A stretch of DNA of 26,344 bases from a virus (Duplodnaviria; Caudoviricetes), in IMG/VR virus record IMGVR_UViG_3300033416_000028, positions 1 to 26,344 of that record. The stretch is one strand, 5' to 3'. Position numbers and translations under genes: made by a program. Shown piece after piece: positions 3 to 17,631 of this stretch. The notes beneath the pieces were generated by a model. That model was not told the DNA's origin. It saw only the letters and a list, made by a program, of their open reading frames with translations, and did not search any database. Positions within the stretch are counted from its first letter, which is position 1. The number at the start of each line of letters is the position of its first letter.

Positions 3-3000
3 GAGCCAACCTCGATCGAAAAGCTGGCCATCACCCAGATCAAGCCTGACACCCTGGCCAGAGTCTCTGATGATGAGGTCCGTGAGGTGTGGCTCAGGCT
101 GCACCAATGGTTTGCCAACGCGGTGAAGCAACGCAGGGCCACGGAGGACTTTATCAACGCAGCTGTCTGGGTCCTGGACGAGTTCAAGCGCAGGGGGTTT
201 GAGGCCTCGGACTCACCGCTCAAGGAGGAGGCTGAAAAGCTGCGCTCCGTGCGCAAGGAAAAAGGGATCGTGGGCAGGCTGGAAAAGCTCCCCAGGGATC
301 TGGTGGTGGTGCGGGATTTCATCTGCCTGGTGGGATCCGCAGCCAAGGGCAAGGAAGATCCCAATGACATCGATCTGCTAGTGCGCGCTCCACGTCAGGA
401 GGATGATTGCCTGGTGCAGCTGGAAAACATCTGGCTCCCCATACGCAACGTGATGGACCCAGAAAAGCGTGATCTGCTGTCATTCCTTTGGAACGCGCAG
501 GGAGCGCACGGCACGCACTTTCCGCTCTATGACTTGGTGTTGCGCAGGAAGGATCAGATAGAGCAAACGATCGTCAAGGCTGACAAGCCACGGAGCGCGC
601 AGGGCCTGACGGCCTTGGATACCCAGGAGCGCACCAAGTCCCAGCGGAGGGCATTCTACAAGACAGAGGCCCAGTATAGGGAAGGCATCGATGGGGGGAG
701 TGCCCCGTGCATCCTCTGCGCATTCTACCAGCGCAGTGGTTTGTCAGAATACCCAGGCCCTGAGACATCCTCCTGCCAGGTGGTGGAGGGCAGCGTCAAC
801 CCATTCGGAACCTGTACCCTCCACATCAATGCCCTGGCCCAGGCCAAGGCCACGCAGCAAGCCACGGAGGCTGGAACCCTCAAGGTTGACCTGGGGTGTG
901 GGGATGCAAAGCCTGACGGGTTTTTCGGGATCGATATCAAGCCAGGCCCCAGCGTGGACAAGGTGGCCAACCTGGAATGGGGCATCCCGCTTGCCAGCAA
1001 CAGCGCAGCCGTGATCCGAGCAAGCCACGTGCTGGAGCACCTCATGGACAAGGAGCACGTGATGAGGGAGATCCACCGTGTGCTCAGGCCCGGGGGTGAG
1101 CTGGTTTTTGAGGTCCCCAGCACCAAGGGTGAGGGGGCCTTTGCGCACCCTGGGCACCGCTCATTCTGGAACAAGTCCGCGTTCCTTTTCTGGGTGCAGG
1201 ATGAGCTGAGGGAGGATCGGCCACGGTTCAACATCAAGGAACTTGAGGAGGTCACCCAGGGAGATCTCACCTATGTGAGGGGCACCCTGGTGAAGCCAGA
1301 ACAGGTGCAAAAGGCCCTTGCCCCTGGGCAACGCTTCATCCCTCCCAAACCTGCCATGGCTGGGACCACGGAGCTGTTTGAGGTGGAGGACCTCTGGAGC
1401 TGGGCAAAGGACAAGCTCCCCATTGCCGTGGAGCCAAAGCACAATGGGTTTCGCGCTGTGGTGAACAAGGCAGGTGAGCGCGTGTCCGTGTGGTTCGAAG
1501 GGCAGATCGGCAAGGACTTGTCCGCGCGGTTCCCTGAGCTGGTGGAGGCTGTCCGCAAGCTGGAGGGAAACCTTGTCCTGGATGCTGACGTGGGCATGGA
1601 GCGCGGAGGCAAGCGCGTTCCAAGGATTGACTTGATGCGCCTCAATTCGGACAAGCCAGAGCTGAGGCCCGGGGAGCGCGTGGTCCTCACCGTGTTTGAT
1701 GCCCCCTACACAGGCGAGGACTTGACGGGCAAGCCATTCAAGGAGCGGAGGCAGGAGCTGGAGCGCGTCCTGGGCCAGGGCAGCGATCTGATCAGGACCT
1801 CACCCCTGCGCTGGGTCAACAGCGTGGAGGAGCTGCGCTCAGCCGCGCGCTGGGCATTCGGTCACGATCGCTCTGAGGGCCTGGTGGCCAAGACGGCACG
1901 CGGCACCTATGAAACGGACGGTTCCACAAATGAGTGGAGCAAGCTCAAACGGGTGGCAGAAATCAAGGTGATCGTGCTCAAGGTGCAAACCACCAAGGCT
2001 GGGGATTTCAACTATTGGGGAGGCCTCCTCCCTGGTGGGTCGGACTGGGAGAACACCACGGAGCTGAATGGCCATGAATATGTGAACCTCGGCAAGACAT
2101 TCAACACCAACCTCAAGGCCAAGGTTGGGGACATCCTCACGGTGCAGGTGCTGGAACTCATCCCCAATGAGGAGGCACGATCCCTGGCCTGGCTGGGTCC
2201 GATGGTGATCGATATCGATACCACGCGCTCCCAGCCCTATCTGGCAGATCAAGCCATCGATGTGACAAGGAGGGCCAACGTGCTCCAGAAGTCCACGCAG
2301 CAAGTCCCCACCAAAGGACCCAAGGGTGCGCCTGTGGCCTTTGTGGGTGCCAGTCCTGGACGGTTTGAGCTGGCCAGGCGTGAGCCCCTGGTGGGGCCAG
2401 CTGGGGAAACATTCAATGACGTGTATCTGAAACCCCTGGGCCTCAGCCGTGATCAGGTGGTGCTGGCAAACGTGGTGCCCGAGCTGTTGCTGGAGGGTGA
2501 TGGACGGGTGAGGGAGCCAAACGATCAGGAGGTGGCAGAGCACCGTGAGGCGCTCCTGGCTGAGCTGCGGGATCTGAGCCCCAGGATCGTGGTGGCCCTT
2601 GGGCGCACCGCTCAGACGGCTCTGGGTGAGGCCGTGGATTTCACCCTGCCCCACCCGTCAGCCGTGCGCAGGTTCGGGGATCGCGGGGAGGTTGCACGCA
2701 AGCTGAAACGGATCAAGGAGGCCATCTCATCCAGCGTGGCAAAGCAACACCCCCGTGGGCTGGAGGAGGGAGGGGAGGACACGCGCGGTGCAGCTGCCAA
2801 TGATGACTGGTTTGAAAACTGGCAGGACTACCTCCCCAAATCAGGCAAGGGGAGGTTTGTCTATCAGCACCACTGGAGGGGAATCCCTGAGGAGGACTTG
2901 GGCAAAACTGATGCCCAGCTCCTGGACACAGGCCACAGCGTGCACGGAGATCTCAGGCTCCAGGGTGAGGATGGCCTCTGGGGATGGGCTGTGCTGATTG

Positions 3001-3983
3001 GGAGCGCAGCCGATAACAAGGCAGCTGGTGGTGACAAGCTCCTGGGCATGAAGCCAGGGCAGCCTGAAAAACTGCGGCTGGCTGCCAAGCTCCACCAGCC
3101 CGAGGCATGGCTGGACGTGGGGGTGGGCAAGCCATTGGTGGCAGAGCCAGGAGGCGCAGGGGCCACCTCCCAGACATCAGCAAAATTCTTTGCGCTTGAC
3201 CGTGGCACATATCAGCTTGGTGTGGCACGCAGGAGCGCGATCGAGATCTTTCTTGACGGAGAGCACGTCAAGGGTCGATACTTGTTACAGCTTGCAGAGT
3301 TCCCAGGTGAAGGTGGTGCGCAAGCCAGGCGCGTGTGGCTGATCGATAAGCCAGAAGATCAAACACCGATGGCTGAGCGCAGAGATCTTGGCGATGTCAT
3401 AGCCGAGTTGAGGCAAAAACAGCAAAGGTTTTTGATATGGGCAAAGCCGGGTGAGAAGCCCCAGCTCATTGATGTGAAAACCGGAGATGTGCTCAAGGCC
3501 TCAATAAGGGTGCCCATCCTAAAAGCTGATCCTGAAAAGCGCATTGTGTATGGGGCTGTCCTCGATCCCTATGGGGACAATGGCCCAGAGGAGGATGCGC
3601 ACGCTGACTGGATGCCCCCTGGTGAGGTTGAAAAGACAGCTCACGCATTCATGCAAGGCCCCAGGACCGTGGGGTTGCAGCATGAAAAAACCGCTGATGC
3701 AAAGGTGGTGGAGAGCTGGGTGGAGCAATACCCAACGCGTGAGGATTATCTGGCAGCCATGAAGCTGCAACCTCACAAGGTTTGGGAAAGGCCGTTCGGT
3801 TCTGACAAGGTGCATTCTGGATCGTGGTGCATGGGAGTGGAGCTGGGACCTAAGGAATGGGAGCTGTTCAAGGCAGGTGAGCTGAATGCCTTCTCCCCGG
3901 GTGGTGTTGGGATGCGCACTCCGATGTCACGATCGATCATGCCCCGTGTCACCTATGTGGAGCTGGTGGCCAGGCCCGTTTGA
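3..3983 (+). CDS. Multidomain prohead-protease polyprotein (NTase / HiPIP-like / methyltransferase / ATP-dependent ligase / UDG-like / LigD phosphoesterase-like / XkdF-type protease); 5'-truncated
   Basis: The frame is open from base 3 (EPTSIEKLAITQIKPDTLARVSDDEVREVWLRLHQW...), so the listed GTG at 87 is probably internal and the start lies upstream of the window. Domain motifs are listed in the sub-features. It sits directly before the scaffold and capsid genes. Confidence 0.9.
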   Translation, partial: EPTSIEKLAITQIKPDTLARVSDDEVREVWLRLHQWFANAVKQRRATEDFINAAVWVLDEFKRRGFEASDSPLKEEAEKLRSVRKEKGIVGRLEKLPRDLVVVRDFICLVGSAAKGKEDPNDIDLLVRAPRQEDDCLVQLENIWLPIRNVMDPEKRDLLSFLWNAQGAHGTHFPLYDLVLRRKDQIEQTIVKADKPRSAQGLTALDTQERTKSQRRAFYKTEAQYREGIDGGSAPCILCAFYQRSGLSEYPGPETSSCQVVEGSVNPFGTCTLHINALAQAKATQQATEAGTLKVDLGCGDAKPDGFFGIDIKPGPSVDKVANLEWGIPLASNSAAVIRASHVLEHLMDKEHVMREIHRVLRPGGELVFEVPSTKGEGAFAHPGHRSFWNKSAFLFWVQDELREDRPRFNIKELEEVTQGDLTYVRGTLVKPEQVQKALAPGQRFIPPKPAMAGTTELFEVEDLWSWAKDKLPIAVEPKHNGFRAVVNKAGERVSVWFEGQIGKDLSARFPELVEAVRKLEGNLVLDADVGMERGGKRVPRIDLMRLNSDKPELRPGERVVLTVFDAPYTGEDLTGKPFKERRQELERVLGQGSDLIRTSPLRWVNSVEELRSAARWAFGHDRSEGLVAKTARGTYETDGSTNEWSKLKRVAEIKVIVLKVQTTKAGDFNYWGGLLPGGSDWENTTELNGHEYVNLGKTFNTNLKAKVGDILTVQVLELIPNEEARSLAWLGPMVIDIDTTRSQPYLADQAIDVTRRANVLQKSTQQVPTKGPKGAPVAFVGASPGRFELARREPLVGPAGETFNDVYLKPLGLSRDQVVLANVVPELLLEGDGRVREPNDQEVAEHREALLAELRDLSPRIVVALGRTAQTALGEAVDFTLPHPSAVRRFGDRGEVARKLKRIKEAISSSVAKQHPRGLEEGGEDTRGAAANDDWFENWQDYLPKSGKGRFVYQHHWRGIPEEDLGKTDAQLLDTGHSVHGDLRLQGEDGLWGWAVLIGSAADNKAAGGDKLLGMKPGQPEKLRLAAKLHQPEAWLDVGVGKPLVAEPGGAGATSQTSAKFFALDRGTYQLGVARRSAIEIFLDGEHVKGRYLLQLAEFPGEGGAQARRVWLIDKPEDQTPMAERRDLGDVIAELRQKQQRFLIWAKPGEKPQLIDVKTGDVLKASIRVPILKADPEKRIVYGAVLDPYGDNGPEEDAHADWMPPGEVEKTAHAFMQGPRTVGLQHEKTADAKVVESWVEQYPTREDYLAAMKLQPHKVWERPFGSDKVHSGSWCMGVELGPKEWELFKAGELNAFSPGGVGMRTPMSRSIMPRVTYVELVARPV
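264..560 (+). other. Domain of ORF1: Pol-beta-superfamily (minimal) nucleotidyltransferase-like
   Basis: FICLVGSAAKGKEDPNDIDLLVR matches the hG[GS]-x9-13-DhD signature (GS at 333, DID at 366). Confidence 0.7.
660..825 (+). other. Domain of ORF1: HiPIP-like four-cysteine metal/Fe-S binding module
   Basis: AQY...CILCAFY-x15-CQVVEGSVNPFGTC, with Cys codons at 708, 717, 774 and 813. Spacing and flanking residues resemble HiPIP (CxxCxxY...CxxxxGxVxxxGxC). Confidence 0.55.
879..1295 (+). other. Domain of ORF1: class I SAM-dependent methyltransferase (Methyltransf_11-like)
   Basis: KVDLGCG (motif I), GIDI, ASHVLEHL and MREIHRVLRPGG. Confidence 0.85.
1320..2288 (+). other. Domain of ORF1: ATP-dependent polynucleotide (DNA) ligase, adenylation domain plus probable OB-fold
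   Basis: Motif I EPKHNGFR (Lys at 1437), III VLDADV, IIIa VFD, ERRQEL, IV SEGLVAK, V WSKLKR, followed by a beta-rich OB-like region. Confidence 0.85.
2300..2730 (+). other. Domain of ORF1: uracil-DNA glycosylase superfamily (family 4-like, divergent)
   Basis: GPKGAPVAFVGASPGRFE...PLVGPAG, LANVV, PRIVVALGRTA and LPHPSA match family-4 UDG motifs A and B. Confidence 0.8.
2850..3360 (+). other. Domain of ORF1: LigD-type 3'-phosphoesterase-like
   Basis: RFVYQHH...HGDLRL...WAV...RLA...DRGTY...LDGEHVKGRYLL...WLIDK parallels the LigD PE consensus FVxQxH...HYDFRL...WAV...RLA...DxGxY...LxGxxLxGRWxL...WLLxK. Confidence 0.7.
3525..3983 (+). other. Domain of ORF1: XkdF-like (Peptidase S78/HK97-fold) prohead serine protease
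   Basis: EKRIVYGAVLDP, DAHADWM..GEVEKTAHAFM, GLQHE (His at 3681), VVESW, GSWCMGV, W...KAGELNAFSPGG (Ser at 3894). Confidence 0.8.
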
Positions 3984-3999
3984 CTTTTTGGAGGAGCAC

Positions 4000-4929
4000 G
4001 TGGGAAATAAAGGACTGACAGCCTTGACTGACTTGCGGGCAGGTGAGGTTTCCCTTGTCACGAGAGGCGCAAACAGGAAACGGCGATTTCCAATCTACAA
4101 ACAGGAGAACGGGACAATGGACGAGCAAACGATCGAGGTGCTCAAATCAGTGATGGAAACCGAGGTGGACGGGGAGGCTCAGCTGGATGAGGTTTTCAAG
4201 GCTGACAAGGTTTCCAAGAAGGGCCTTGAGGCGATCCGTGGTGCGCTGCGGATCCTCAATGGCTTCAAGGAGGAGATGCCCAAGGACGTGATGTCCAAGC
4301 TGGCAGGCCTGGCAGGGTACGCTCCCCCGGGAAAGGACGAGTATCCCAAACCCAAGGAGGATGAGATGGACAAGAACAAGGGCAAGGTGAACAAGGCAGA
4401 TGAGCTGCCCCCTGAGGTCAAGGCGATCCTCGATCCGATCATGAAAGCTCAGAACGATCAGATCACCGCGCTCAAGGAGCAGATCGCCAAGTCCGATGAG
4501 GCGCTCACCAAGGAGCGGGATCAGCACGCGCTGGAGGCCTGGATCAAGAAGTGTGAGCAGGAACTCAGCTTCTATCCGGGGAAGTCCAGCGAGGACCTCG
4601 GAAAGATGCTGCACGTGCTGGCCAAGCAAGACGGCAAGCTGGCAGAGGAGCAATTCAACAGCATGAAGCAAGCCAGCGCCACGATCGAAAAGAGCGCGCT
4701 CCTCACCGACGTGGGCCTCAAACAGGGTGACACCACGCGCACGGGAGTCACCAACGGCACGGCCTGGGATGCCATCTGCAAGCTGGCTGACGGGATCGTG
4801 GAGAAGTCCGAAAAGAACGTCTCCAGACACGCAGCGGTTTCGCAGGTGCTCAAGTCCGAGAAGGGCAGGCAGCTGTATGCCCAGTATCTGGAGGAGCACC
4901 CTGCGCAGATCGAGTCTTTCAGGCGCTAA
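4000..4929 (+). CDS. Capsid scaffolding protein with an N-terminal protease-like strand
   Basis: GGAGGAG at 3990-3996 precedes GTG at 4000, a better start than the listed 3886. The protein is charged and coiled-coil-like, begins LTDLRAGEVSLVTRGAN, and lies between the protease and capsid genes. Confidence 0.75.
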   Translation: MGNKGLTALTDLRAGEVSLVTRGANRKRRFPIYKQENGTMDEQTIEVLKSVMETEVDGEAQLDEVFKADKVSKKGLEAIRGALRILNGFKEEMPKDVMSKLAGLAGYAPPGKDEYPKPKEDEMDKNKGKVNKADELPPEVKAILDPIMKAQNDQITALKEQIAKSDEALTKERDQHALEAWIKKCEQELSFYPGKSSEDLGKMLHVLAKQDGKLAEEQFNSMKQASATIEKSALLTDVGLKQGDTTRTGVTNGTAWDAICKLADGIVEKSEKNVSRHAAVSQVLKSEKGRQLYAQYLEEHPAQIESFRR

Positions 4930-4986
4930 GCGCACGGACCAAACAACACGGCTCTGACTGAGCCTAAAAAAAAGGTGAGGTGAAAA

Positions 4987-5361
4987 ATGGCATTCGAGAA
5001 TCCGCATGAAATCCTTGAGGGGCTCTTGGCTGGGGAGGATCTTTCCCTGGCTCAGGACAGCCTGGTGGTGATTGACAACACGGGCAAGGCCGTGCTCAAC
5101 ACCGTGGCTGGTGGAATCGTGGACGGTGTGCTCCTGGGCAAACCCACCACGGGGCAGGTGGCAAGCGTGGCCTGCGGTGGACGTGCGATCGTCAAGTGCG
5201 GTGCCGCAGTGGATCCCGGGGATCCCGTGGCCTCGGACGATCAGGGCAGAGCGATCAAAGCGCTCAGCGCCACGTTTGCCTTTGGCCGTGCCCTCACGGG
5301 AACCACCACGGCTGGGGAGCGCCTAACCGTCAACCTCAAAGCCTTTGGGTTCCTGCCCTAA
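4987..5361 (+). CDS. Capsid decoration/cement protein (DUF2190-like)
   Basis: 124 aa, Gly/Ala/Val-rich (GAAVDPGDPVASDDQGRA...GRAL), just upstream of the capsid gene, with a GAGGTG RBS. Confidence 0.75.
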   Translation: MAFENPHEILEGLLAGEDLSLAQDSLVVIDNTGKAVLNTVAGGIVDGVLLGKPTTGQVASVACGGRAIVKCGAAVDPGDPVASDDQGRAIKALSATFAFGRALTGTTTAGERLTVNLKAFGFLP

Positions 5362-5386
5362 GGCCTGATCAGAGGAGGATCAAAAC

Positions 5387-6370
5387 ATGCCTACCAGCAA
5401 CCCCACTCCGTCTGATGTCCATGTGAATCAACCCCTAACCAACATCTCCGTGGCGTATCTCCAGGATACCAGGGAGTTCATCGCCACGCAGGTGTTTCCC
5501 AACGTGCCCGTGGCAAAGAACAGCGATGTGTTCTTTGTGTTTCCCAAGGGGCAGTGGTTCCGATCGGAGGCCCGTGAGAGGCCCCTGGGCAGCGAGTCCG
5601 CAGGCACACGGTATGACGTGGAGAAGGCCCCCGCGTACAACGCCACGGTCAAGGCCCTCCATGTGGACATCGATGATCAGCTGCGCGCCAATCAGGACGC
5701 GCCTCTGGATCTGGACATGGCCAGCTCTGAGCTGGTGACCCGTGGCTTGCTCCTGCGGAGGGAAAAAGACTTCGCGGACAAGTTCTACAAGACGGGCGTC
5801 TGGACGGGATCCACCACGGGCACGGACATTGTGCCAGGCACAAAGTGGAACGCCACGGGATCCACCCCCATCAAGGACATCAGGACCCAGATGAGGAGCC
5901 TGAAAACGAAATCGGGTTTCAGGCCCAACAAGCTGATCCTCGGTGAGGATGTTTGGGATGCCATCCAGGACAACGGCGATTTCCTCGATCGCATCTCGAT
6001 CAGCCGTGACAAAATCGTGACCCTTGACCTCCTGGCCACGGTGCTGGGTCTGCCCCCGGGTGGCGTGCTGGTGGCAGGCGCGATCCAGAACATCGCGATC
6101 GAGGGAGCACCGAGCGGGGATGATCTGCGCCTGCTGTTCCAGGACGCTGCCCTCCTGTGCTACGCAGCCGATCGGCCTTCCCTCATGATGCCCTCCGCTG
6201 GGTACACCTTCAGCTGGACGGGCTATCTGGGGGCCTCCGCAGATGGCCTCAGGATGCTCCGTTTCAGAATGCAGCATCTGCGCTCCGATCGGATCGAGGG
6301 TGAGATGGCTTATGACCTGCAAGTCATCGCCTCCGATCTGGGTGTGTTCTTTGACAACGTGCTGTCCTGA
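5387..6370 (+). CDS. Major capsid protein (HK97 fold)
   Basis: 327 aa, with HVNQPLTNISVAY...FIATQVFPNVPV and RPNKLILG motifs typical of this capsid family, a GAGGAGG RBS, and the expected synteny. Confidence 0.88.
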   Translation: MPTSNPTPSDVHVNQPLTNISVAYLQDTREFIATQVFPNVPVAKNSDVFFVFPKGQWFRSEARERPLGSESAGTRYDVEKAPAYNATVKALHVDIDDQLRANQDAPLDLDMASSELVTRGLLLRREKDFADKFYKTGVWTGSTTGTDIVPGTKWNATGSTPIKDIRTQMRSLKTKSGFRPNKLILGEDVWDAIQDNGDFLDRISISRDKIVTLDLLATVLGLPPGGVLVAGAIQNIAIEGAPSGDDLRLLFQDAALLCYAADRPSLMMPSAGYTFSWTGYLGASADGLRMLRFRMQHLRSDRIEGEMAYDLQVIASDLGVFFDNVLS

Positions 6371-6396
6371 TGACATCCAGGCCTTGACGTGGTAAG

Positions 6397-6419
6397 ACGG
6401 TTCCACGTGACGGAACCGT
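6397..6419. promoter_or_regulatory. Inverted repeat/hairpin downstream of the capsid gene
   Basis: ACGGTTCC-acgtgac-GGAACCGT: a perfect 8-bp stem with a 7-nt loop and no U-tract. Confidence 0.4.
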
Positions 6420-6441: not shown

Positions 6442-6876
6442 ATGGGTTGGATTGCCACCAAAGCAATAAGAGTCTTGAGGGCTGGGTCCTATGTGGATTT
6501 GAGGCCAGGAGATCCGTGTCCAGAGGCTGAGACATGGCCTAACCTTGGCGCCTGGGAGCGCACGGGATACGTGCGCAAGGTGCCCGATGCGCCCAGTGCA
6601 GCTCCAGCCGTGGCTGTTGCCCAGGCCACGCGCACGCTGCCCGAGCTGCCCAAGGCATGTCAGGAGCCTGTGCCCCTCAAACCACTGCCCCAGGTGCAGG
6701 TGGCCACGCACCACCAGCCGCAGCGTGAGGCCTCCCCACATCGGTGGGGAACGCGTGAGCTGCGCAGGAAGTCTAAGGAGGAGCTGGTGGAGCTGGCTGC
6801 ACGGCACGGAGTCAGGGGTGCAGGAGTCCTCAAACGGGATGACATCATCCAAGCAATCAGAGAAGCCCAGGGGTGA
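6442..6876 (+). CDS. Hypothetical head-region protein with a C-terminal Rho_N/HeH-like domain
   Basis: AGGAGGA RBS then ATG at 6442. It has a Pro/Ala-rich linker and the C-terminus ELRRKSKEELVELAARHGVRGAGVLKRDDIIQAI. Confidence 0.7.
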   Translation: MGWIATKAIRVLRAGSYVDLRPGDPCPEAETWPNLGAWERTGYVRKVPDAPSAAPAVAVAQATRTLPELPKACQEPVPLKPLPQVQVATHHQPQREASPHRWGTRELRRKSKEELVELAARHGVRGAGVLKRDDIIQAIREAQG

Positions 6877-7320: not shown

Positions 7321-7856
7321 TGGCTGGAGGAAAGCCCACAGTCATTGTAAAGGATCTTGGCTGGAATAGGATCGTCAGGGTGGCAAAGCGCTATGCTGGC
7401 CTAGGTGGACTTGGCGTGTCCGTGGGCATCCAGGGCCAGGCAGCGCAGGAGGAGAAGGCCGTGCCCCCCGGGGAGGCACCTCCTGCAAGCCCAGTCACCA
7501 ACGTGCTGGTGGCCAGCGTGCATGAATTTGGGGCACCGTCCAAAGGCATCCCTGAGCGCTCGTTTCTCCGCTCCACCTTTGACGCCAACATGGCCCAGTA
7601 TGAACGGAGGCTCATGGAGATCTCAGCGCTGGGCCTGGAGGGGCAGCGCATTGAAGGACACCTTTTCCTCCTGGGGGAGCGCGCGCGGAGGGATGTGATC
7701 CGCAAGCTGCAATCGGACATCCCCCCAAAAACCCAGAGGCAGCTTGACCCAAACGATCCAAAGCGCATGGACCCAGCGCTGTTTGACACGGGCCAGCTTT
7801 GGAACTCGATCACTGCGGTGTTGCTTGACCTCAAGTCCTTTGGGGGTGGAGCGTGA
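7320..7856 (+). CDS. Neck/tail completion protein (HK97 gp10-like, virion morphogenesis)
   Basis: ASVHEFGAP...IPERSFLRST and LFDTGQLWNSIT motifs; TGATG overlap with the previous gene. Confidence 0.75.
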   Translation: MAGGKPTVIVKDLGWNRIVRVAKRYAGLGGLGVSVGIQGQAAQEEKAVPPGEAPPASPVTNVLVASVHEFGAPSKGIPERSFLRSTFDANMAQYERRLMEISALGLEGQRIEGHLFLLGERARRDVIRKLQSDIPPKTQRQLDPNDPKRMDPALFDTGQLWNSITAVLLDLKSFGGGA

Positions 7857-8221
7857 CATCCTGTTTCTGTGATGTTGTCCCGTGCCTTTGCGGGATGGGT
7901 GAAAAGCTGCGCATCCTGCGCAGGCTCCCTGGGGTGTACGATGAGAACGGAAGGTGGACGGAAGGTGAACCCACGGTGATCGATCTGATCGCTGTGGTGC
8001 AGCCCCTGAAAGCCCATGAGATGGTGCGAGTTCCAGAGGGCAGGAGGAGCACGGGCACGCTCAAACTGTACTCACCCACCAAGTTCCAGACGGCTGACGT
8101 GAAATTGCAGCGTCAGCCCGATCGGTTCTGTTGGCATGGGGATGAGTATGAGATCCTATCCGTGGAGGATTGGGCGCAAGGTGGATTTTATAAGGCAATC
8201 GCTGTGGAGGTTGGGCAATGA
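7853..8221 (+). CDS. Head closure/stopper protein
   Basis: GVYDENGRW, VVQP, PEGRR, D.F.W.GDEYEI.SVEDW pattern; synteny; GTGA overlap. Confidence 0.7.
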   Translation: MTSCFCDVVPCLCGMGEKLRILRRLPGVYDENGRWTEGEPTVIDLIAVVQPLKAHEMVRVPEGRRSTGTLKLYSPTKFQTADVKLQRQPDRFCWHGDEYEILSVEDWAQGGFYKAIAVEVGQ

Positions 8222-8814
8222 CGTTTGACCTGAGCGTGCCAGATAACCTCACTCCTCCGATTAACATGGAGGATTTTGAGGACACGGTGCACAGCTGGTT
8301 TGCTGATGCGATCGGCCTTGTGGCTGTGTGGCGTGACATGGCAGCTCCCCAGCCTCCCTATCCATACGGCTCATTGTTGATCACCACTGGACCGATACCA
8401 GCCTCACCGCGCTGGGAACAGCGTTATACGCTCGATCCGTCCAGGCCAGAGGGCCAGGAAATTGAGGCTGAGGTGTGCGTGCCTTGCGCGATCGTTGTCA
8501 ATTGTCAGGTGTACGTGGGGCAGCCGTGCGCGCGTGGAGCGCTGAAAAAGGCAACCCACTATTTGACGATCGCGCAGTCCAGCCTGGGGTTGCCAAGCGT
8601 GCTCCAGACGTTCCAGGACGCTGGGATCGCTGTGGTGCGTCCTGAGGCTGTGCTCAACATCGATGCCCTCATTGAGGATGCCTATGTATCGCGCGCCTCC
8701 ATGGATGTGCGCTTTGCTGCCAGTTTGAGCTTGCGGGAATATCTGGGCTACATTGAACGTGTCCACGCCAAGTCAGAGAGCCTGGGTGTGGATCAAACCT
8801 TTGGGAGGATTTGA
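8218..8814 (+). CDS. Neck/tail terminator protein
   Basis: Position immediately before the sheath; APQPPYPY and RASMDVRF patterns; ATGA overlap. Confidence 0.65.
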   Translation: MTFDLSVPDNLTPPINMEDFEDTVHSWFADAIGLVAVWRDMAAPQPPYPYGSLLITTGPIPASPRWEQRYTLDPSRPEGQEIEAEVCVPCAIVVNCQVYVGQPCARGALKKATHYLTIAQSSLGLPSVLQTFQDAGIAVVRPEAVLNIDALIEDAYVSRASMDVRFAASLSLREYLGYIERVHAKSESLGVDQTFGRI

Positions 8815-8817
8815 GCC

Positions 8818-10134
8818 ATGAGTCTATCCGATATCGTGCAGGTAACCATCACCGCTCAGACCACGGCACCCACCCGGGCAGGGTTTGGCGTGCCCCTTGT
8901 GATGGCCTTTCACTCCGTGTTCACCGAGCGCGCGCGCGTGTACTCCAGCGTGGATGCCATGATCACCGATGGCTTCACAGCCACGGATGAGGCCGTGCTG
9001 GCAGTCCAAGCGCTGTTCGCTCAGAACCCGAGGCCCACCCAGGTGGTGGTGGGCAGGGAAGTGAACAGGGAGAAAAAGAAGATCAACCTGACGCTTCCCT
9101 CGGTGCTGAGGGCATCCTTCCCGTACACCGTCTATGTCAACGGGCAGGAGGCCACCTATACCACCGATGCCAGCCCCACCGTGGCCGAAATCACCGCAGG
9201 CCTCAAGGTTGCCATCGATGCCCTCAGCGAGCCTGTCACCACCACGGACAACGCCACGGATCTGGACATCGAAGCCAACACGATCGCGGTGCCCTTCACC
9301 TTCCACGTCAAGGATCCTGCGGACATCTACCAGGAGAACGTGACCCCCGATGGGTCTCCTGACGGGATCGTGGCTGACATCGCAGCCGTGCGTGAGGAAA
9401 ATGACACGTGGTATGGGCTCATCCTCACCAACGCAAGCAAGCCCTGTGTTCTGGCTGCGGCTGCGTACATTGAGGCCACGTTCAAGATCATGGTGACCCA
9501 GAGCGCGGACACGGGGATGCTGCTCTCCACCGTGACGGATGACGTGGCCTCCGAGCTGCAAACCGCAGGGTATGCGCGCACAGCCATCATCTACCATCCC
9601 AAGGAGCAACAGCACGCTGGGGCAGCGTGGATGGGGAAGTGCCTGCCCAAGGATCCTGGGTCCATCACGTGGAAATTCAAAACGCTGGCAGGCGTGGACA
9701 GCGTGGATCTGACGGACACCGAGGTCACCAATCTGGAGGCCAAGGATGCGAATCACTACACCACGATCGCTGGGATCGCAATCACCCAGCAAGGCGTGAC
9801 CTCTGCGGGTGAGTTCATCGATGTGACCCAGAGCGTGGACTTCATGAGGGCCAGGCTCCAGGAGTACATCTATTCGCGCCTGGCCAACACGGACAAGGTG
9901 CCTTTCACGGATCCAGGGATCGCGATCGTGGAGGCAGAGGTCCGCGCTGTCATGGTGCTCTGTGTGAATCAGGGGATCCTGGCTGCGGATCCCGCTCCCA
10001 CCGTGTCCGTGCCCAGGGCAGCTGACGTGTCCATGATCGATAAGGCTGCGCGCCTCCTGCCTGATGTGAAGTTTGAGGCAACCCTGGCAGGCGCGATTCA
10101 CAAGGTGATCGTCAACGGCACCGTTTCGGTGTAA
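8818..10134 (+). CDS. Contractile tail sheath protein (DUF3383-like)
   Basis: 438 aa; LSDIVQVTIT...AGFG.PL, FAQNPRP, PGSITWKFKTLAGV, GEFID, KVPFTDPGI, LAGAIHKV.VNGTV. Confidence 0.9.
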   Translation: MSLSDIVQVTITAQTTAPTRAGFGVPLVMAFHSVFTERARVYSSVDAMITDGFTATDEAVLAVQALFAQNPRPTQVVVGREVNREKKKINLTLPSVLRASFPYTVYVNGQEATYTTDASPTVAEITAGLKVAIDALSEPVTTTDNATDLDIEANTIAVPFTFHVKDPADIYQENVTPDGSPDGIVADIAAVREENDTWYGLILTNASKPCVLAAAAYIEATFKIMVTQSADTGMLLSTVTDDVASELQTAGYARTAIIYHPKEQQHAGAAWMGKCLPKDPGSITWKFKTLAGVDSVDLTDTEVTNLEAKDANHYTTIAGIAITQQGVTSAGEFIDVTQSVDFMRARLQEYIYSRLANTDKVPFTDPGIAIVEAEVRAVMVLCVNQGILAADPAPTVSVPRAADVSMIDKAARLLPDVKFEATLAGAIHKVIVNGTVSV

Positions 10135-10152
10135 CCAAGGAGGAGGCGCAAG

Positions 10153-10581
10153 ATGGCACTTCACACGTATGACGCTGCACAGGTTGCGATCGTATTCGCG
10201 GGAATCCCCGTGGATGGGTTCGCAGATGGCACGTTCTTGAGCGTGGAGCAAAACGAGGACAGTTTTTCCCTCCAGGTGGGAACCGATGGGGAAGGGTGCC
10301 GATCGAAGTCCAACAACAGATCGGGACGAGTCACCTTCACCCTGGGGCAGTGGAGCAAGACAAACGATCTGCTCTCCGCGCTGCACCAGCTGGATATCAA
10401 CACCCCCAACGGAGATGGGATCGGGCCTCTGCTGATCAAGGACCTCAGCGGCACCTCGCTATACGCGGCTGAGAAGGCCTGGATCGTCAAGCCCCCTGCG
10501 GCTGCCTTTGCCCGTGAGGCAGAGAGCCGAGAGTGGATCATTGAGACCCACGATCTGCAACAATTCCATGGGAGCAATTGA
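10153..10581 (+). CDS. Tail tube protein (DUF3277-like)
   Basis: 142 aa following the sheath; TYD...V...G..VDGFADG, VGTDG, SGRVTFTL.Q.S..N..LS, REW.I; AGGAGGAGG RBS. Confidence 0.85.
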   Translation: MALHTYDAAQVAIVFAGIPVDGFADGTFLSVEQNEDSFSLQVGTDGEGCRSKSNNRSGRVTFTLGQWSKTNDLLSALHQLDINTPNGDGIGPLLIKDLSGTSLYAAEKAWIVKPPAAAFAREAESREWIIETHDLQQFHGSN

Positions 10582-10595
10582 GGGAGCGCTGAGGC

Positions 10596-11072
10596 ATGAC
10601 ACAGTTTGACGGTGAAACGCGAGAGCTGGAGGGGAACAAATACACGATCTACATGCTGGGGCCAATGGTATCCCACGATCTGTTGGTGGACGTTTCCAAG
10701 ATGGTGGGGCCTGCCCTGGGTCCAGTGATGGACGTGTTCCTGGGTGGTGCCGCAGCTGGCAAGGACGTGGCCAACACCGAGCTTGACGCTGGCTTTTTCA
10801 GCAAGGCAGCCGCTGCCTTTTTCGGAGGGATAGACAAGGCCACGATCCGAAACGTGATCACCACCATGGCAGAGGCAACCCACGTGGACGGCAAACCCCT
10901 CAAGGGAATTTTTGAGATCCATTTCAGGGGCAGGTTGCACGTCATGTACATGTGGCTGGCCTTTGCATTTGAGGTGCAATGGGGAAAGTCCTTAGGCGCC
11001 TTGGTGAACACCATCCAAACCAAAGGCGCAAGGCTAGGGATGGCTCAGGCGTCCCAGTCCCAGGGCACCTAA
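10596..11072 (+). CDS. Tail assembly chaperone (gpG-like)
   Basis: Lies between the tube and tape measure genes and contains the slippery heptamer G GGA AAG. Confidence 0.8.
   Translation: MTQFDGETRELEGNKYTIYMLGPMVSHDLLVDVSKMVGPALGPVMDVFLGGAAAGKDVANTELDAGFFSKAAAAFFGGIDKATIRNVITTMAEATHVDGKPLKGIFEIHFRGRLHVMYMWLAFAFEVQWGKSLGALVNTIQTKGARLGMAQASQSQGT
10982..10988 (+). promoter_or_regulatory. Programmed -1 ribosomal frameshift site GGGAAAG
   Basis: In-frame tgG GGA AAG, identical to the lambda G/GT slippery sequence. The -1 frame stays open to 11230. Confidence 0.8.
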
Positions 11073-11230
11073 ACTGGATGGTGTGGAGGCTGGTGATCGA
11101 GCGCGTGTCCACCCTCCAGGAGGTGCTTGGCTTCTATGATCTGAATGACGTTCTTGACGCGCATGAAGCCCTGGATCTGCGGGATGAAGCTGAGCGCAGG
11201 GCCATGGAGTCCTCCAGGAAAGGCAGGTAA
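10988..11230 (+). CDS. Frameshift extension of the tail chaperone (gpGT-like C-terminal part)
   Basis: The -1 frame encodes ...WMVWRLVIERVSTLQEVLGFYDLNDVLDAHEALD..., a typical gpT-like segment, and ends 6 nt before the tape measure start. Confidence 0.75.
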   Translation, partial: VLRRLGEHHPNQRRKARDGSGVPVPGHLNWMVWRLVIERVSTLQEVLGFYDLNDVLDAHEALDLRDEAERRAMESSRKGR

Positions 11231-11236
11231 GGCTGG

Positions 11237-13222
11237 ATGATTGTCAAACAGCTCACAGCCCTCCTTGGGTTCAAGGTAGATGAGGGGAGCGTGGCCAAGG
11301 CCAACGCCTCCATGGGCAACATGGTGGAGGTGGCAAAGCGTGCAGCTGTTGCCTTTGGTGTGTTCAAGACATTCCAGTTTTTCAGCAACCTTGGTGAACA
11401 GGTTGCAAAGCTGGGTGATCAATTCAGCGAAATGTCAGCGCGCACCAAGGTCAGCGTGCAGACCCTCCAGGCCTGGGCCTACGGTGCAGAGACCACAGGG
11501 GCCAGCCTGGGGGATCTGGAGGTTGCCCTCAAAACGCTGTCACGCACAGCCGTTGACGCGGGGAAGGGTTCCAAGGAAACAGCTGATGCCTATGCGCGCC
11601 TTGGCGTCAACGTCAAAAAAGCTGACGGCACGATCGCCACATCTGAGGAGCTGTTCATCGGTGTTGCTGAGGGACTCTCAGGCGTGGAGGATGAGTCCCT
11701 AAAAACCGCTCTGGCGCTCAAGGTCCTGGGAAAGAACGGGCAGATGTTGCTCCCCATGCTGGAGGGTGGCTCCCAGGGCCTTGACGATCTGATGGTGAAA
11801 GCAAAGGCCCTTGGCGTGGTGATGGATGAGGACCTCATCCAGATGACACGTGAGTATGATGATGCTGCTGATGAAAATAAGGCAGCGATCCAGGGCCTCA
11901 AGAACGCAATGGGAAAAGGCATCATCCCCCCGCTCATCCAGGCCAAGCGCAGGATGACGGAATGGATCAAGGTAAACAAGGAGTGGATCGCGCAGAGCTT
12001 TGGGAGGTGGCTGGGGCAGATGGGACAAGCGCTTGTCCGCACCAGACAGCTCCTCATGGATGTCACCAGCGCTGTTGCCAATTGGACAAAACAGCTTGAC
12101 CCTCTGCAAAAAAAGTTCCTGGCCCTTGGTGTTGCGGCTGCCATTGTGGCTGCCCTCCTGGCCCTCCCTGGTGGAATGTTTCTGCTGATCGCTGGGCTCA
12201 TCTGGCTCCTCATCGATGATTTCCAGACGTGGCGCGAGGGTGGCAAGTCAGCGATCGGAGATCTCATCAAGTGGTTTGAGGATCTGATCAACAAAATCCC
12301 TGGACTTGGATCAGCCATCAAGGCCGTGGGCACGATCGTTTATTCGGTGTTCAAGTACATCACGGACATCATCTATTCATTCTTTGGGTTCCTGATGGTG
12401 GCCTGGGATGAGGGCTGGATGGCTGCTTTCCGTTGGCTCATGGATACCTGGACCAAGGCCTGGAGCGATTTGGTGGCAGCGCTCTGGCCCATCCTGAGCG
12501 CGATCTGGACCAATGTCTCCACGCTGTTTGTGGAGCTGGGCACCTGGATCTGGGGTTGGGCCAAGAACGTATGGAAACCCATTGGGGACTTTTTCAGCGA
12601 AACCTGGGATGGGATTGTCAGCGGACTCAGCAAGGCGCTCAAGATCATGGGTTCCTTCCTGAGCGATTTTGTGACAAACGCTATCGCGTTCTATCTGTAC
12701 CCATTCAAAAAAATCTACTCATGGGTTTCAAAGCTGTTCGGCAAGGGCAAGGGAGCTGAGCTGGAGGCCGAGCTGGGCCAGCCTGCCCAGCCAGCTGGAG
12801 GCGCAGGAGCCACGGCTGGAGCTGGAGCTGGTGGCAAATGGCCTGGGCCTGAGGCTCAAACCCCTGGGCTCCAGGTGGTGCCCCTGGTGCAGCCCCAGGC
12901 CCCTGGGCTCAAGGTGGTGCCTCTGATGCCCCCCCAGGCCCCTGCGCCCAGGTTCCCCATGCGTGAGCTTGCTGGGCTCAACAGGGTGGCCACGGCTGGC
13001 CCTCAGGCCATGTATCCCCAGTCCGTGGCAGCTGCCCCAGCACGGGCACCTTTGACGCTGGCTCCTCAGACATCGATTGATGTCAAGGTCCAGGCCACCC
13101 CCGGAATGGATGAGGAGGCCCTGGCCCGTGCCGTGGCAAAACACGTGGAGGATGCCACGGAAAACCAGTATCGCTCAGCGCTCCAGGCGCTCACCCCCGC
13201 AGCCGCAGCCACAGGAGGTTGA
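11237..13222 (+). CDS. Tape measure protein
   Basis: 661 aa, helical and Ala-rich. It starts MIVKQL...LGFKVD and has a hydrophobic segment (LLIDDFQTWREGGKS), Trp/Phe-periodic repeats and a Pro/Ala-rich C-terminus. Confidence 0.85.
   Translation: MIVKQLTALLGFKVDEGSVAKANASMGNMVEVAKRAAVAFGVFKTFQFFSNLGEQVAKLGDQFSEMSARTKVSVQTLQAWAYGAETTGASLGDLEVALKTLSRTAVDAGKGSKETADAYARLGVNVKKADGTIATSEELFIGVAEGLSGVEDESLKTALALKVLGKNGQMLLPMLEGGSQGLDDLMVKAKALGVVMDEDLIQMTREYDDAADENKAAIQGLKNAMGKGIIPPLIQAKRRMTEWIKVNKEWIAQSFGRWLGQMGQALVRTRQLLMDVTSAVANWTKQLDPLQKKFLALGVAAAIVAALLALPGGMFLLIAGLIWLLIDDFQTWREGGKSAIGDLIKWFEDLINKIPGLGSAIKAVGTIVYSVFKYITDIIYSFFGFLMVAWDEGWMAAFRWLMDTWTKAWSDLVAALWPILSAIWTNVSTLFVELGTWIWGWAKNVWKPIGDFFSETWDGIVSGLSKALKIMGSFLSDFVTNAIAFYLYPFKKIYSWVSKLFGKGKGAELEAELGQPAQPAGGAGATAGAGAGGKWPGPEAQTPGLQVVPLVQPQAPGLKVVPLMPPQAPAPRFPMRELAGLNRVATAGPQAMYPQSVAAAPARAPLTLAPQTSIDVKVQATPGMDEEALARAVAKHVEDATENQYRSALQALTPAAAATGG
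12861..12943 (+). repeat. Imperfect 39-nt tandem duplication in the tape measure C-terminus
   Basis: Encodes PGLQVVPLVQPQA / PGLKVVPLMPPQA, with units starting at 12861 and 12900. Confidence 0.8.
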
Positions 13223-13228
13223 TCAGGC

Positions 13229-13816
13229 ATGGGACTCACTGAGCTGATTTTCGGACCCAAGACTCACTTGACCGTGGGGGTGGTGCAGTTTGACGCCTCG
13301 GTGAGTGAGACCCACACGCGGGAATGTGAAATCTGTGATCATCCCGTGGAGGAGGGGGCCACCATCAGCGATCACATCAGGCGCACTCCCGAGCGCCTGG
13401 AGGTCAACGGGATCGTCACCAATCACCCCCTGGTATTCCTGGCCAGCGTGCAGGCAGTTTCCCCGCTCACGGATGACATGAGCCCCGTGACGGATCGCGC
13501 TGAGGTTGCCTATTTCAAGCTGGCTGAGCTGATGGACACGGGCCAGCTGGTGACCGTGATAACCTCACTGCGCGAATACCAAAACATGGCCATCGTGTCC
13601 ATGAGCGTGACCCGTGACGTGCAGACGGGGAACGTCCTAAATTGCTCCCTGGGCTTGCGGGAAATCATCATCGCTCAGACGGAAACGGTAGCTGCACCAG
13701 TCCCAGAAAAGACGGTGCAGAAACGGAAAAAGGACAAGGGCAAGAAGGTTGCGCAGGAAACTCCCAAGGATGCGCAGTCAATTCTGTCCAGAGTCCTCGG
13801 ATTCTTTGGAGCGTGA
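13229..13816 (+). CDS. Baseplate/tail tube initiator (Dit-like) protein
   Basis: FDA.VSETH......DHPVEEGATISDH...P, and Y.NM.I.S.SV.RD motifs; follows the tape measure gene. Confidence 0.75.
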   Translation: MGLTELIFGPKTHLTVGVVQFDASVSETHTRECEICDHPVEEGATISDHIRRTPERLEVNGIVTNHPLVFLASVQAVSPLTDDMSPVTDRAEVAYFKLAELMDTGQLVTVITSLREYQNMAIVSMSVTRDVQTGNVLNCSLGLREIIIAQTETVAAPVPEKTVQKRKKDKGKKVAQETPKDAQSILSRVLGFFGA

Positions 13817-13819
13817 GCC

Positions 13820-14158
13820 ATGGCATTGATGAGCATCCCAACCCCCAACGCAAGCGTGGACGCAAATATCTTTTTTGTGGTGGAGCTGGATGGTGCGGAA
13901 TACCAGCTTTTCATGAAATACAATGAGCGTGAGGATGCCTGGTATCTGGACGTGGCGGACACCTACGGAAACCCGATCCGCTCTGGCATGAAAATGGTTT
14001 GCAATTTTCCATTCATGCGCACGTGCATGATCGAGACCAGACCTCCTGGGGAGTTCCTTGCGCTGGACACGTTGACGCCTCCCCGGGATCCAGGCCTCAC
14101 GGACATGGATCAGCGGATCGAGCTGGTATATGAGGAGGCAGAGAGCTTGCCCTCATGA
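13820..14158 (+). CDS. Small baseplate (plug-like) protein
   Basis: VELDG.EY....YNER...WYLD pattern and synteny. Confidence 0.65.
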   Translation: MALMSIPTPNASVDANIFFVVELDGAEYQLFMKYNEREDAWYLDVADTYGNPIRSGMKMVCNFPFMRTCMIETRPPGEFLALDTLTPPRDPGLTDMDQRIELVYEEAESLPS

Positions 14159-15009
14159 GTGAACTATTCAACAGGGATGTGGCGATCACCGTGGGCACCA
14201 TCAAGATTGCCTCACGGGTCAAGGCCTCTGGCTCTGATGAGCTGGTGAGCAAGCCCACCCTGCGCGTCACCTTCTCTGTTGAGAAGTCCTTGAACCGCGA
14301 TCCAAACAAGGCAGAGGTGGTGATCTACAATCTCAATGAGGAGCACCGAAAAAGCCTACAAAAGAAAAACGTGCCGTGCATCATTGAGGCTGGATATGTG
14401 GGATCCCTTGAAAAGATTTTCAGCGGAGATCTCGCCTATGCCAGCAATAACCGTGACGGGGTGAGCTGGGTGAGCAAGCTGCAAAGCAAGGATGGTGGGG
14501 ACAAGTACAGCTCAGCGCGCATGTCCAAATCATTCGGGCCTGGCACTCAATTCAAGCAAGTCCTCAAACAGGCAGCTGAGTCCCTGGGGGTCGGGCCAGG
14601 CAACACCAGGGATGCGATTTCTGGTGTGCTCCGTGGGGGCCTCACTCAATTCACCAAGGGTGTCACCCTGACGGGCAAGGTGTCCGACGTGCTGGACAAG
14701 CTGGTGCCCACGGCTGGCCTTGAGTGGAGCATCCAAGACGGGCAGCTCCAGATCCTTCCCTTGAAAGGCGTGACCCAGCAAACGGTGATCGTGCTCAGTC
14801 CTGACAGTGGGATGGTGGGTTCTCCCGAGCTGGGGGAGAAGGGGATTGTCAAGATCAAGTCCTTGCTGATGGGTGGGCTGACGCCTGGGCGCAAGCTCAA
14901 GATAGAGGCCTCCCTGGTAACGGGATTCTTTCGGATCGAGAAAGTCAAGCATTTTGGTGACACGTGGGGATCTGATTGGTACAGTGAGGTGGAGGCAAAG
15001 CCGATATGA
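14155..15009 (+). CDS. Baseplate hub protein
   Basis: F.VEKS....PN.A...IYNL, EAGY...IFSG, WSIQDGQL, SGMVGSP, GDTWG.DWY motifs. Confidence 0.8.
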   Translation: MSELFNRDVAITVGTIKIASRVKASGSDELVSKPTLRVTFSVEKSLNRDPNKAEVVIYNLNEEHRKSLQKKNVPCIIEAGYVGSLEKIFSGDLAYASNNRDGVSWVSKLQSKDGGDKYSSARMSKSFGPGTQFKQVLKQAAESLGVGPGNTRDAISGVLRGGLTQFTKGVTLTGKVSDVLDKLVPTAGLEWSIQDGQLQILPLKGVTQQTVIVLSPDSGMVGSPELGEKGIVKIKSLLMGGLTPGRKLKIEASLVTGFFRIEKVKHFGDTWGSDWYSEVEAKPI

Positions 15010-15791: not shown

Positions 15792-15798
15792 GGTTTGA

Positions 15799-17627: not shown

Positions 17628-17631
17628 TCCC

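Follow-up and report, generated by a model that had tools for sequence, protein, structure and literature searches.

The virus record IMGVR_UViG_3300033416_000028 (Caudoviricetes), which in its entirety (26.3 kb, 41% complete) is the window analyzed here, begins with a single open reading frame (ORF; 3..3983, plus strand) of 1326 amino acids (aa), followed in order by a scaffold-like gene, the genes for a capsid cement protein and the major capsid protein, and a contractile tail module. The initial annotation described this ORF as one polyprotein in the head-protease position, carrying a nucleotidyltransferase (NTase), a four-Cys piece resembling a high-potential iron-sulfur protein (HiPIP), a methyltransferase (MTase), an ATP-dependent ligase, a uracil-DNA glycosylase (UDG) fold and a LigD-like phosphoesterase (PE) ahead of an XkdF-type protease. 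We confirm the single ORF and its position, and find it to be a 5'-open form, its start being cut by the edge of the record, of a database protein of 1375 aa (P0002), from which it also differs by four substitutions. As P0002 adds just 49 N-terminal residues, there is no additional enzyme domain upstream of the window ORF. An assembly chimera, or a set of decaying pseudo-domains, might be suspected given that the record is fragmentary and that three relatives (L036, L083 and L084) carry the polyprotein in two frames, with the break inside the UDG or the ligase. The ORF is nevertheless real and not a chimera, because 74 homologues have an identical domain order and a contig from an independent study covers positions 1-2740 of the window; a second contig, perhaps from the source sample, covers 597-6400, and third codon positions hold 21 of the 28 variants listed for the ORF. 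The pooled dN/dS is 0.07-0.15 for every domain tested (three to six non-independent pairs per domain, with the Cys-rich piece excluded), all tested domains are under purifying selection, and chimerism or decay can be dismissed with near certainty. The two sequencing runs with the best matches are wetland and freshwater metagenomes. RNA run X13 gave seven short contigs only and no evidence of expression, a promoter and terminator scan stayed at chance level, and a tRNA search found none.

Searches with a profile of the PE domain retrieve 217 clusters (at 50% identity) at E <1e-30 and 432 at E <1e-10, and the best 150 clusters were taken for further work. Among 173 PE-bearing proteins of at least 600 aa, a set biased toward relatives of the window protein, the NTase is present in 143, the ligase in 133, XkdF in 129, a helical N-terminal domain in 128, the UDG in 83, the MTase in 51 and the Cys-rich piece in nine, while the full domain set of the window protein recurs in three. 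In 29 of the 32 loci scanned (chosen from 89), the closest genes upstream include portal and/or MuF. The family is widespread, and is sited after portal/MuF and ahead of the scaffold and capsid genes. In the archaeal virus ANMV-1, an NTase-ligase-OB-PE protein is encoded directly downstream of the portal, and one member that lacks XkdF belongs to a provirus flanked by host genes in a Dehalococcoidia metagenome-assembled genome (MAG). An amidase gene in the close relative G044 points to a bacterial host. A link with lysogeny was rejected, with a serine recombinase in one and a tyrosine integrase in one of 17 records. A second element of the same Dehalococcoidia MAG (L098:10706-19998, contig 3 of G002) encodes portal, MuF, a 1589-aa protein combining a metallo-beta-lactamase (MBL) fold, Dam and ligase, and then a PE protein scoring above the LigD_N cut-off. 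The G002 provirus region also harbors defence-type genes, viz., TIR-TPR (L095:18884-19969), an N6 methylase with HSDR_N (L096:14799-17477) and deaminase-NB-ARC-TPR (L097:1-2562).

Pfam matches were judged against the curated cut-offs, and residues are numbered according to the 1326-aa ORF. Among the seven domains proposed earlier, the MTase, ligase, UDG and XkdF are matched above the cut-off and the PE is recovered by profile comparison, whereas the signals for the NTase and the HiPIP-like piece are weak; three features had been overlooked, namely a helical domain at the N-terminus, an OB domain after the ligase and the incompleteness of the protease domain. The helical domain (3..257; aa 1-85 together with the 49 residues beyond the window) is conserved and is modeled as helical with high pLDDT (mean of 86 for a 196-residue model that includes the NTase). 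Fold searches with this domain return generic helical matches only (Z ≤7), an Atlas search with aa 1-140 gives no usable match, and searches with the combined helical and NTase model are not significant (best E of 0.16 in the PDB and 0.1 in the viral search, best Z of 7.0 in VIA on generic helices), which is not evidence for a new fold; a PDB profile search of the same region is empty. The following domain (258..578) is a putative minimal Pol-beta-type NTase, whose motif of Gly-Ser (G111, S112), Asp-x-Asp (D122, D124) and a third Asp (D177) is intact in the window protein and conserved in 71, 69, 71, 71 and 62 of 72 aligned sequences, respectively. Profile and fold matches to it are fainter: NTP_transf_2 stays below the cut-off (E 0.035), Polbeta matches the NTase of the relative P0175 at E 2e-4, and Foldseek lists MNT, TdT and Pol-beta at E 0.27 or worse (0.89 in the Atlas). 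The next piece (579..848) occupies a variable slot and does carry four Cys (C236, C239, C258 and C271), but has no Pfam match and keeps the fourth Cys in only six of ten carriers; its likeness to HiPIP is conjectural. A class I S-adenosylmethionine (SAM)-dependent MTase follows (849..1313), as first proposed, with Methyltransf_11 matching above the cut-off over aa 323-369 and the SAM-binding Gly residues conserved in 37 and 36 of 38 sequences.

The ligase fold, together with its OB domain, occupies 1314..2291; it is closest to archaeal DNA ligases, and DNA_ligase_A_M matches it above the cut-off over aa 473-649. We surveyed 134 ligase domains of the family, taking residue correspondences from sequence alignment to archaeal ligases. 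The adenylation-domain residues are kept, viz., the motif I Lys (K479) in 132, the motif IV Glu (E625) in 133 and the motif V Lys (K647) in 132, and a Phe of the OB domain (position 700) is kept in 113. By contrast, an acidic residue replaces the motif Ia Arg in 127 (E499 in the window protein), Arg takes the place of the NT-domain Phe in 132 (R541), and three domains have the motif VI Arg, for which the window protein has D739. Motifs I and III co-vary, being Asp and Glu in 55 domains and Asn and Asp in 54, among them the window protein (N481 and D529, the latter in place of the motif III Glu); the ANMV-1 ligase has canonical motifs I, III and VI. The earlier claim of an ATP-dependent ligase thus stands for the fold and the catalytic Lys but not for the motif Ia and VI Arg, the motif III Glu and the Phe wedge; PMC7470946 describes what motif VI and the Phe pair do.

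The UDG fold (2292..2744) is family-4-like, with a Pfam match above the cut-off over aa 771-892 that stays below the family-4 cut-offs. The residues E789, N823 and H884, which we take to fill the roles of the second Glu, the Asn and the motif B His, are kept in 47, 50 and 57 of 61 sequences. The motif A Glu position is Ala in 48 of these (A783 in the window protein), and the UDG domain of the window protein has no Cys and hence no 4Fe-4S cysteines, so that the fold proposed initially is retained while these two hallmarks are gone. UDG families that are active despite missing the motif A Glu exist. The PE fold and its C-terminal extension (2745..3497) justify the name LigD-like: a 72-row family profile aligns with a set of three canonical PEs and one second PE from a family member at an hhalign probability of 98.2, with LigD_N itself matching weakly (E 0.021, below the cut-off). 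A profile search of the PDB gives five matches that bear ligase-domain or uncharacterized names and which we take to be LigD-type PE structures. Equivalents of the metal triad His42/His48/Asp50 and of Arg52 (H957, H981, D983 and R985) are each present in 68 of 69 sequences, the His84 position is Gln in 64 (Q1032), the Tyr88 position is Trp in all 69 (W1036), and an invariant Lys (K1029) is adjacent in the Glu82 region. His84 and Tyr88 mutants of P. aeruginosa LigD are inactive (PMC8656161). Under purifying selection yet with replaced catalytic residues, the ligase, PE and UDG are conserved but rewired, and were kept for some function that is not obviously textbook repair.

These residues bear directly on the possibility that the polyprotein is a canonical LigD-like or base-excision-like kit for uracil excision, 3'-phosphatase action and nick sealing, ejected to mend phage DNA. 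The ligase, PE and NTase do co-occur as in LigD across the large family members, and the proximity to archaeal DNA ligases, the retained Lys and Glu residues of motifs I, IV and V, and the canonical motifs of ANMV-1 agree with such a role. However, the family-wide replacements at the ligase and PE active sites and the missing motif A Glu and Fe-S cysteines of the UDG speak against it, no AEP-type polymerase domain is matched by Pfam or NCBIfam in the window protein, and Ku is absent from all 17 viral records searched, including seven complete ones (the incomplete phage of the window is not among them); Ku is found in one of two host MAGs, ~60 kb from the provirus. With the anti-defence-type cargo of relatives described below, this weakens the initial idea of a kit that heals and seals breaks, and we consider it quite unlikely.

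The chain ends in an XkdF prohead protease core (3525..3983), in accordance with the initial annotation: XkdF S78_2 matches above the Pfam cut-off over aa 1172-1303, and D1198, H1227 and S1298 are conserved in 63, 62 and 63 of 63 sequences. The fold is incomplete in this chain, though, as the core is without the last strand of the S78 fold. The next gene, that of the scaffold (4000..4929, plus strand; GTG start behind a purine-rich ribosome-binding site), opens with a segment (4003..4113) that appears to be this missing strand and ends with an invariant Lys. By pattern, the segment stands at the start of 42 of 52 scaffolds, most of the others carrying a variant, and it has five invariant columns in 41 rows, including the final Lys. 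In three loci (L040, L048 and L062) the segment directly adjoins the core, and the match to the S78 profile (positions 95-158) extends over both. Of five separate segments taken from relatives, two give weak matches to S78 positions 129-153 (E 0.005 and 0.045); the window's own segment does not reach an E below 1 against the S78 profile. In proteins of Lactococcus, Bacillus, Dulem-37 and HSTV-1 the segment is found N-terminal to the core, i.e., in a permuted form. Judged from these sequence patterns, the protease is split across two genes, with its last strand opening the scaffold gene. In the assemblin fold, the last strand presumably carries the third triad residue and the oxyanion loop. We infer that the scaffold recruits the precursor and switches it on, which would also be a likely docking route into the prohead. 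Separately, the protease region (3381-3935) matches phrog_1530, labelled DNA methyltransferase, and several Lactococcus XkdF-scaffold genes (KX456206.1 and similar) are so labelled in GenBank, likely a propagated mis-annotation.

A short motif, hydrophobic-x-Lys followed by Ala or Ser, with the predicted cut after the Lys, links the scaffold to the junctions between the enzymes. A survey of 77 loci counts 301 occurrences of the motif in 50 scaffolds (mean of 68.5 on shuffling) and 157 in junction zones (42.1 on shuffling), with a slight excess in domain cores (131 against 101.8) and numbers close to those expected for clusters of capsid, cement and terminase/portal/MuF proteins. Its density per 1000 aa is 21.5 in scaffolds, where it is spread throughout, and 2.5 in domain cores; the scaffold of the window has eight sites (1.2 expected). 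In 146 proteins with less than 70% PE identity, the PE/XkdF junction being left out of the pools, the motif is found at 107 of 275 enzyme-enzyme junctions of members with XkdF (27.0 expected), at nine of 126 within-unit junctions, i.e., ligase/OB and N0/helical (12.5 expected), and at seven of 75 enzyme junctions of members without XkdF (7.4 expected). The strictest de-duplication (55% identity) leaves 35 of 92, one of 42 and two of 32, respectively. The PE/XkdF junction itself has the motif in 70 of 93 cases (11.2 expected), and the edges of inserted cargo have it in 32 of 96 cases with XkdF (6.9 expected) versus four of 36 without (2.2 expected). Ordinary XkdF-scaffold proteins outside the family are likewise enriched (10 against 1.3, 12 against 1.4 and 9 against 1.4 expected, and 3 against 0.7 in HSTV-1). 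An unbiased three-position scan places Ile/Val-x-Lys-Ala/Ser among the top 15 words of scaffolds (three entries) and Val-x-Lys-Ala seventh in junctions, behind conserved domain-edge words, which is supportive but not decisive.

In the window protein, cuts are predicted after the NTase at K192 (576..578), between the MTase and ligase at K437 (1311..1313; motif at 15 of 30 such junctions, 2.9 expected), between the OB domain and UDG at K763 (2289..2291; 18 of 35, 4.7 expected), between the UDG and PE at K914 (2742..2744), where Gln is the next residue (Ala/Ser at 16 of 37 junctions, and 33 of 37 if Gln is allowed), and between the PE and protease at K1165 and K1174 (3495..3524). With the weaker candidates K85 and K282, border cuts would release pieces of 10-36 kDa. 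Since the motif is common to enzyme junctions and scaffolds and is not enriched at within-unit and XkdF-less junctions, we predict self-processing: hydrophobic-x-Lys would be the cleavage signal of XkdF, and the precursor would be processed into separate enzymes. The related HK97 protease cleaves after Lys. In ordinary XkdF phages (L103-L105), the Lys motif also occurs in the first 20 residues of the capsid and MuF proteins and near the portal termini, which predicts propeptides.

Several observations weigh against this picture. The motif was first spotted in the window and tested afterwards, on related sequences; in its strict form it marks only 39% of junctions, and K85 and K282 do not conform to it. 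Three of the eight motif sites of the window protein lie elsewhere, with K489 and K946 inside domains and K1290 in the protease. XkdF is missing from 44 of the 173 large members, some of which are truncated and some of which have another protease, and no print source was found that names hydrophobic-x-Lys as the XkdF cut site. Repeated sites also serve scaffold destruction, such that cutting does not prove retention in the head, and a PE devoid of His84 and Tyr88 may not hydrolyze at all. As to the members that lack XkdF, they end in, or precede, other protease-like and scaffold-like sequences that have no Pfam match (tails of P0065, P0069, P0070, P0076, P0132 and P0184; L076:10793-12043, L079:2157-3293 and L080:9915-11081), and a BLAST comparison of the XkdF core with the P0065 tail is not significant. 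Lys-Ala or Met-Ser words are frequent at the junctions of these members and hint at other cut codes; an alternative motif with Met or Glu at P1, suggested by eye, was not significant in seven loci and was set aside.

The protease gene might alternatively be a tolerant, highly expressed landing site, from which cargo is cut off and not delivered, acting in the producing cell or in the prohead during packaging, or merely being removed. This would account for cassettes without XkdF that lie directly after portal/MuF (ANMV-1, L076, L079, L080, L086 and L087) and for the sharing of the motif with a scaffold that is presumably degraded. Yet the sites of the cargo cluster at domain borders while those of the scaffold are everywhere, the head-module position is kept across bacterial and archaeal viruses, and flanking sites accompany newly inserted cargo, making such a fate very doubtful in our view, and we rank it below the repair kit. 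The earlier proposal that fusion to the protease loads the enzymes into the head has gained support from the scaffold-shared junction motif and the split protease, from which we infer it.

The slots between the core domains of relatives hold varied cargo. Pfam searches of 30 proteins picked for large unassigned stretches found MBL folds in 15 (three under the cut-off), Dam-type methylases in six, Acb1 in two, other 2H domains in two, and GNAT and HNH in one each, and other relatives carry DHH and further 2H/Acb1 cargo, Acb1 being above the cut-off in L035, P0112 and P0198. The swappable cargo therefore appears to include enzymes of anti-defence type (Acb1/2H, Dam). One MBL domain was tested as an Apyc1-like enzyme and this candidate was rejected, its five matches being beta-lactamase-like or putative hydrolases, none named anti-Pycsar. 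The core can be exchanged too: L028, L030 and L034 have PEs that are 90-93% identical, yet their ligases come from three different supported clades in a quick tree, which indicates that the ligase-OB unit is exchanged as a module among close relatives. A His-rich repeat insert (two to four copies of acidic-Gly-x-His-x-His), possibly a metal-binding module, is seen in the cargo slot of P0008, P0010, P0014, P0052, P0058, P0074, P0075, P0092, P0116, P0141 and P0192. Neighboring head genes carry cargo of their own (L042:3708-6593, L082:5516-7036, L025, L033, L038 and L089:1913-3193), comprising a portal-MuF-HipA-like kinase, a kinase-like tail appended to MuF, inteins or homing domains that sit within MuF, portal and terminase, and a portal of ANMV-1 with a MutT-like annotation.

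Such cargo raises the possibility that loading and cutting occur as proposed, but that the core enzymes destroy, bind or alter immune signaling nucleotides, or nucleotidylate host proteins. The charge reversals at phosphate-binding positions, viz., the acidic residue for the motif Ia Arg, the rarity of the motif VI Arg and the invariant Lys in the Glu82 region of the PE, are in keeping with this, as are the Acb1, 2H, DHH and MBL domains of relatives and the weak fold matches of the NTase to protein-AMPylating MNT antitoxins; Iyer et al. 2017 (PMC5512222) suggested such roles for 2H domains and minimal NTases. On the other hand, the OB domain stays joined to the ligase with no cut motif in between and retains F700 in most members, pointing to a nucleic-acid substrate, the MBL cargo matched no entry named anti-Pycsar, and a PADLOC search with P0002 gave no match. 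We regard a nucleotide-directed role of the core as unlikely, though the least so of the alternatives considered.

We hypothesize that the window protein is a self-processing head-cargo polyprotein. The head operon encodes a precursor of 1375 aa. Its incomplete C-terminal XkdF core would dock on the first ~35 residues of the scaffold and thereby gain its last strand, which would activate the protease and tether the precursor in the prohead. The protease would then cut after hydrophobic-x-Lys, digesting the scaffold and freeing about eight folded pieces of 10-36 kDa, among which the ligase and OB domain stay joined; from the sequence evidence, we hold this docking, activation and motif-directed cutting to be quite likely. 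By precedent, the head would retain the pieces and pass them into the cell along with the DNA, a step that analogy makes reasonably likely. There, the core trio of NTase, ligase fold and PE fold would heal, adenylate, and join or cap damaged or blocked non-classical nucleic-acid ends, rather than ordinary nicked duplex, and so protect the incoming genome ahead of gene expression, with the swappable slots bringing in further counter-defence enzymes; to this last step we give an even chance. The scheme in its entirety has about an even chance of being right. More generally, the protein appears to be a processed head-cargo polyprotein, probably serving counter-defence, and not a canonical LigD kit.

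If this holds, small phages (~50 kb) would have a genetically simple route for loading and releasing many head enzymes, by means of a scaffold-completed protease and a short cut motif. The motif would give the XkdF proteases, which have received little study, a specificity open to testing, and the altered active sites of the ligase and LigD-PE folds could mean new nucleic-acid chemistry. The arrangement would also yield a rule by which injected anti-defence proteins could be located in viruses infecting bacteria and archaea of sediments, and may suggest how enzymes of choice could be packaged into phage particles in the laboratory. A bolder and rather doubtful extension is that bacterial and archaeal tailed viruses share a virion-delivered trio, consisting of a Pol-beta NTase, a rewired ligase fold and a rewired LigD-PE fold, with new chemistry such as capping or joining of blocked ends or neutralizing of immune nucleotides, and loaded by a scaffold-completed protease whose readable cut code accommodates plug-in counter-defence domains; in that case, motif-flanked unknown inserts would amount to a predictable catalogue of anti-defence proteins that are injected.

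Beyond the scaffold lie further head and tail genes. The cement protein (4987..5361, plus strand) matches Phage_cement_2 slightly below the cut-off (E 2e-4) and the major capsid protein (5387..6370, plus strand) matches phrog_1005 (E 2e-73). A small post-capsid gene (6442-6876) has a C-terminal Rho_N-like domain (E 3e-7), and a complete contractile-tail module (7853-18186) shows E217/Pam3-type collar, terminator, sheath, tube, hub and baseplate matches. Further downstream (23290-25269), a LamG domain is followed by ~430 aa of quasi-repeated small-residue segments, and a LamG protein is also present in the relative G044.

Among known systems, the closest in organization are the polyvalent proteins of Iyer et al. 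2017 (PMC5512222), in which assemblin-like peptidases are always C-terminal and processing into units is predicted. These share with the window protein many unrelated catalytic domains, a virion-gene context, the C-terminal maturation peptidase, predicted processing and injection, and 2H cargo, and the window protein indeed combines at least two disparate catalytic domains, a virion-gene setting and a C-terminal peptidase. In contrast, DNA ligase, LigD PE and glycosylase domains go unmentioned in the main text of Iyer et al., which lists Pol-beta NTases only for conjugative elements and describes neither the cut motif nor scaffold complementation. None of the polyvalent hallmark domains (MPTase, ArdC, LPD, PBECR and others) is among the Pfam and NCBIfam matches of the window protein, with 2H being found in relatives. 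The initial remark that no characterized system is known to have such an architecture needs qualification, as its general form of cargo plus C-terminal assemblin-like peptidase was already in that main text, while this domain set is not found there. What appears to be new, on the sequence evidence, is the junction cut motif, the scaffold-completed split protease, the rewired active sites and the variable cargo of relatives. Nudix, 2H and ART domains fused to MuF, portal or capsid-processing peptidase have likewise been suggested to travel in the virion and, once injected, to counter nucleotide signaling of the host (PMC9503650), but the fusions described there are single-domain and without the ligase-PE-NTase cassette. 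Bacterial LigD (PMC8656161, PMC7470946) resembles the window protein in its ATP-dependent ligase fold with OB domain, its PE fold with metal triad and a nucleotide-adding domain, whereas the window protein has a minimal NTase of Pol-beta type and not AEP, lacks Ku, has His84/Tyr88 of the PE and the motif Ia/VI residues of the ligase replaced, and stands in a virion context. A literature search that covered few subscription papers turned up nothing published on the present set of domains, the cut motif, the protease split or XkdF specificity, and the supplement of Iyer et al. may list the architecture; a jumbo phage review (PMC7824862) mentions XkdF once in its accessible text, as a head peptidase.

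Ordinary XkdF protease-scaffold proteins (Lactococcus 28201 gp33, Bacillus B83 gp09 and HSTV-1 gp13) share the protease family, the head-operon slot and the Lys motif of the scaffold, but unlike the window protein are single-chain and cargo-free, with the completing strand N-terminal. T4 Alt is reportedly a comparable case of an internal head protein processed by a prohead protease. In SPN3US (PMC10052503), the maturation protease likewise cuts internal head proteins at a short motif and the internal proteins are ejected, although there the cargo consists of separate genes with propeptides and not of domains in the protease chain. The ANMV-1 protein AJP62006, annotated as an ATP-dependent DNA ligase, shares the domain order of the core and the E499/R541 signature, and differs in its archaeal virus, in the lack of XkdF, UDG and MTase and in its canonical motifs; ANMV-1 is assigned to archaea in PMC4372165, the main text of which does not mention the ligase. 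In comparison with these systems, the window protein behaves as polyvalent proteins do and, taken broadly, probably belongs with them; it is not a LigD.

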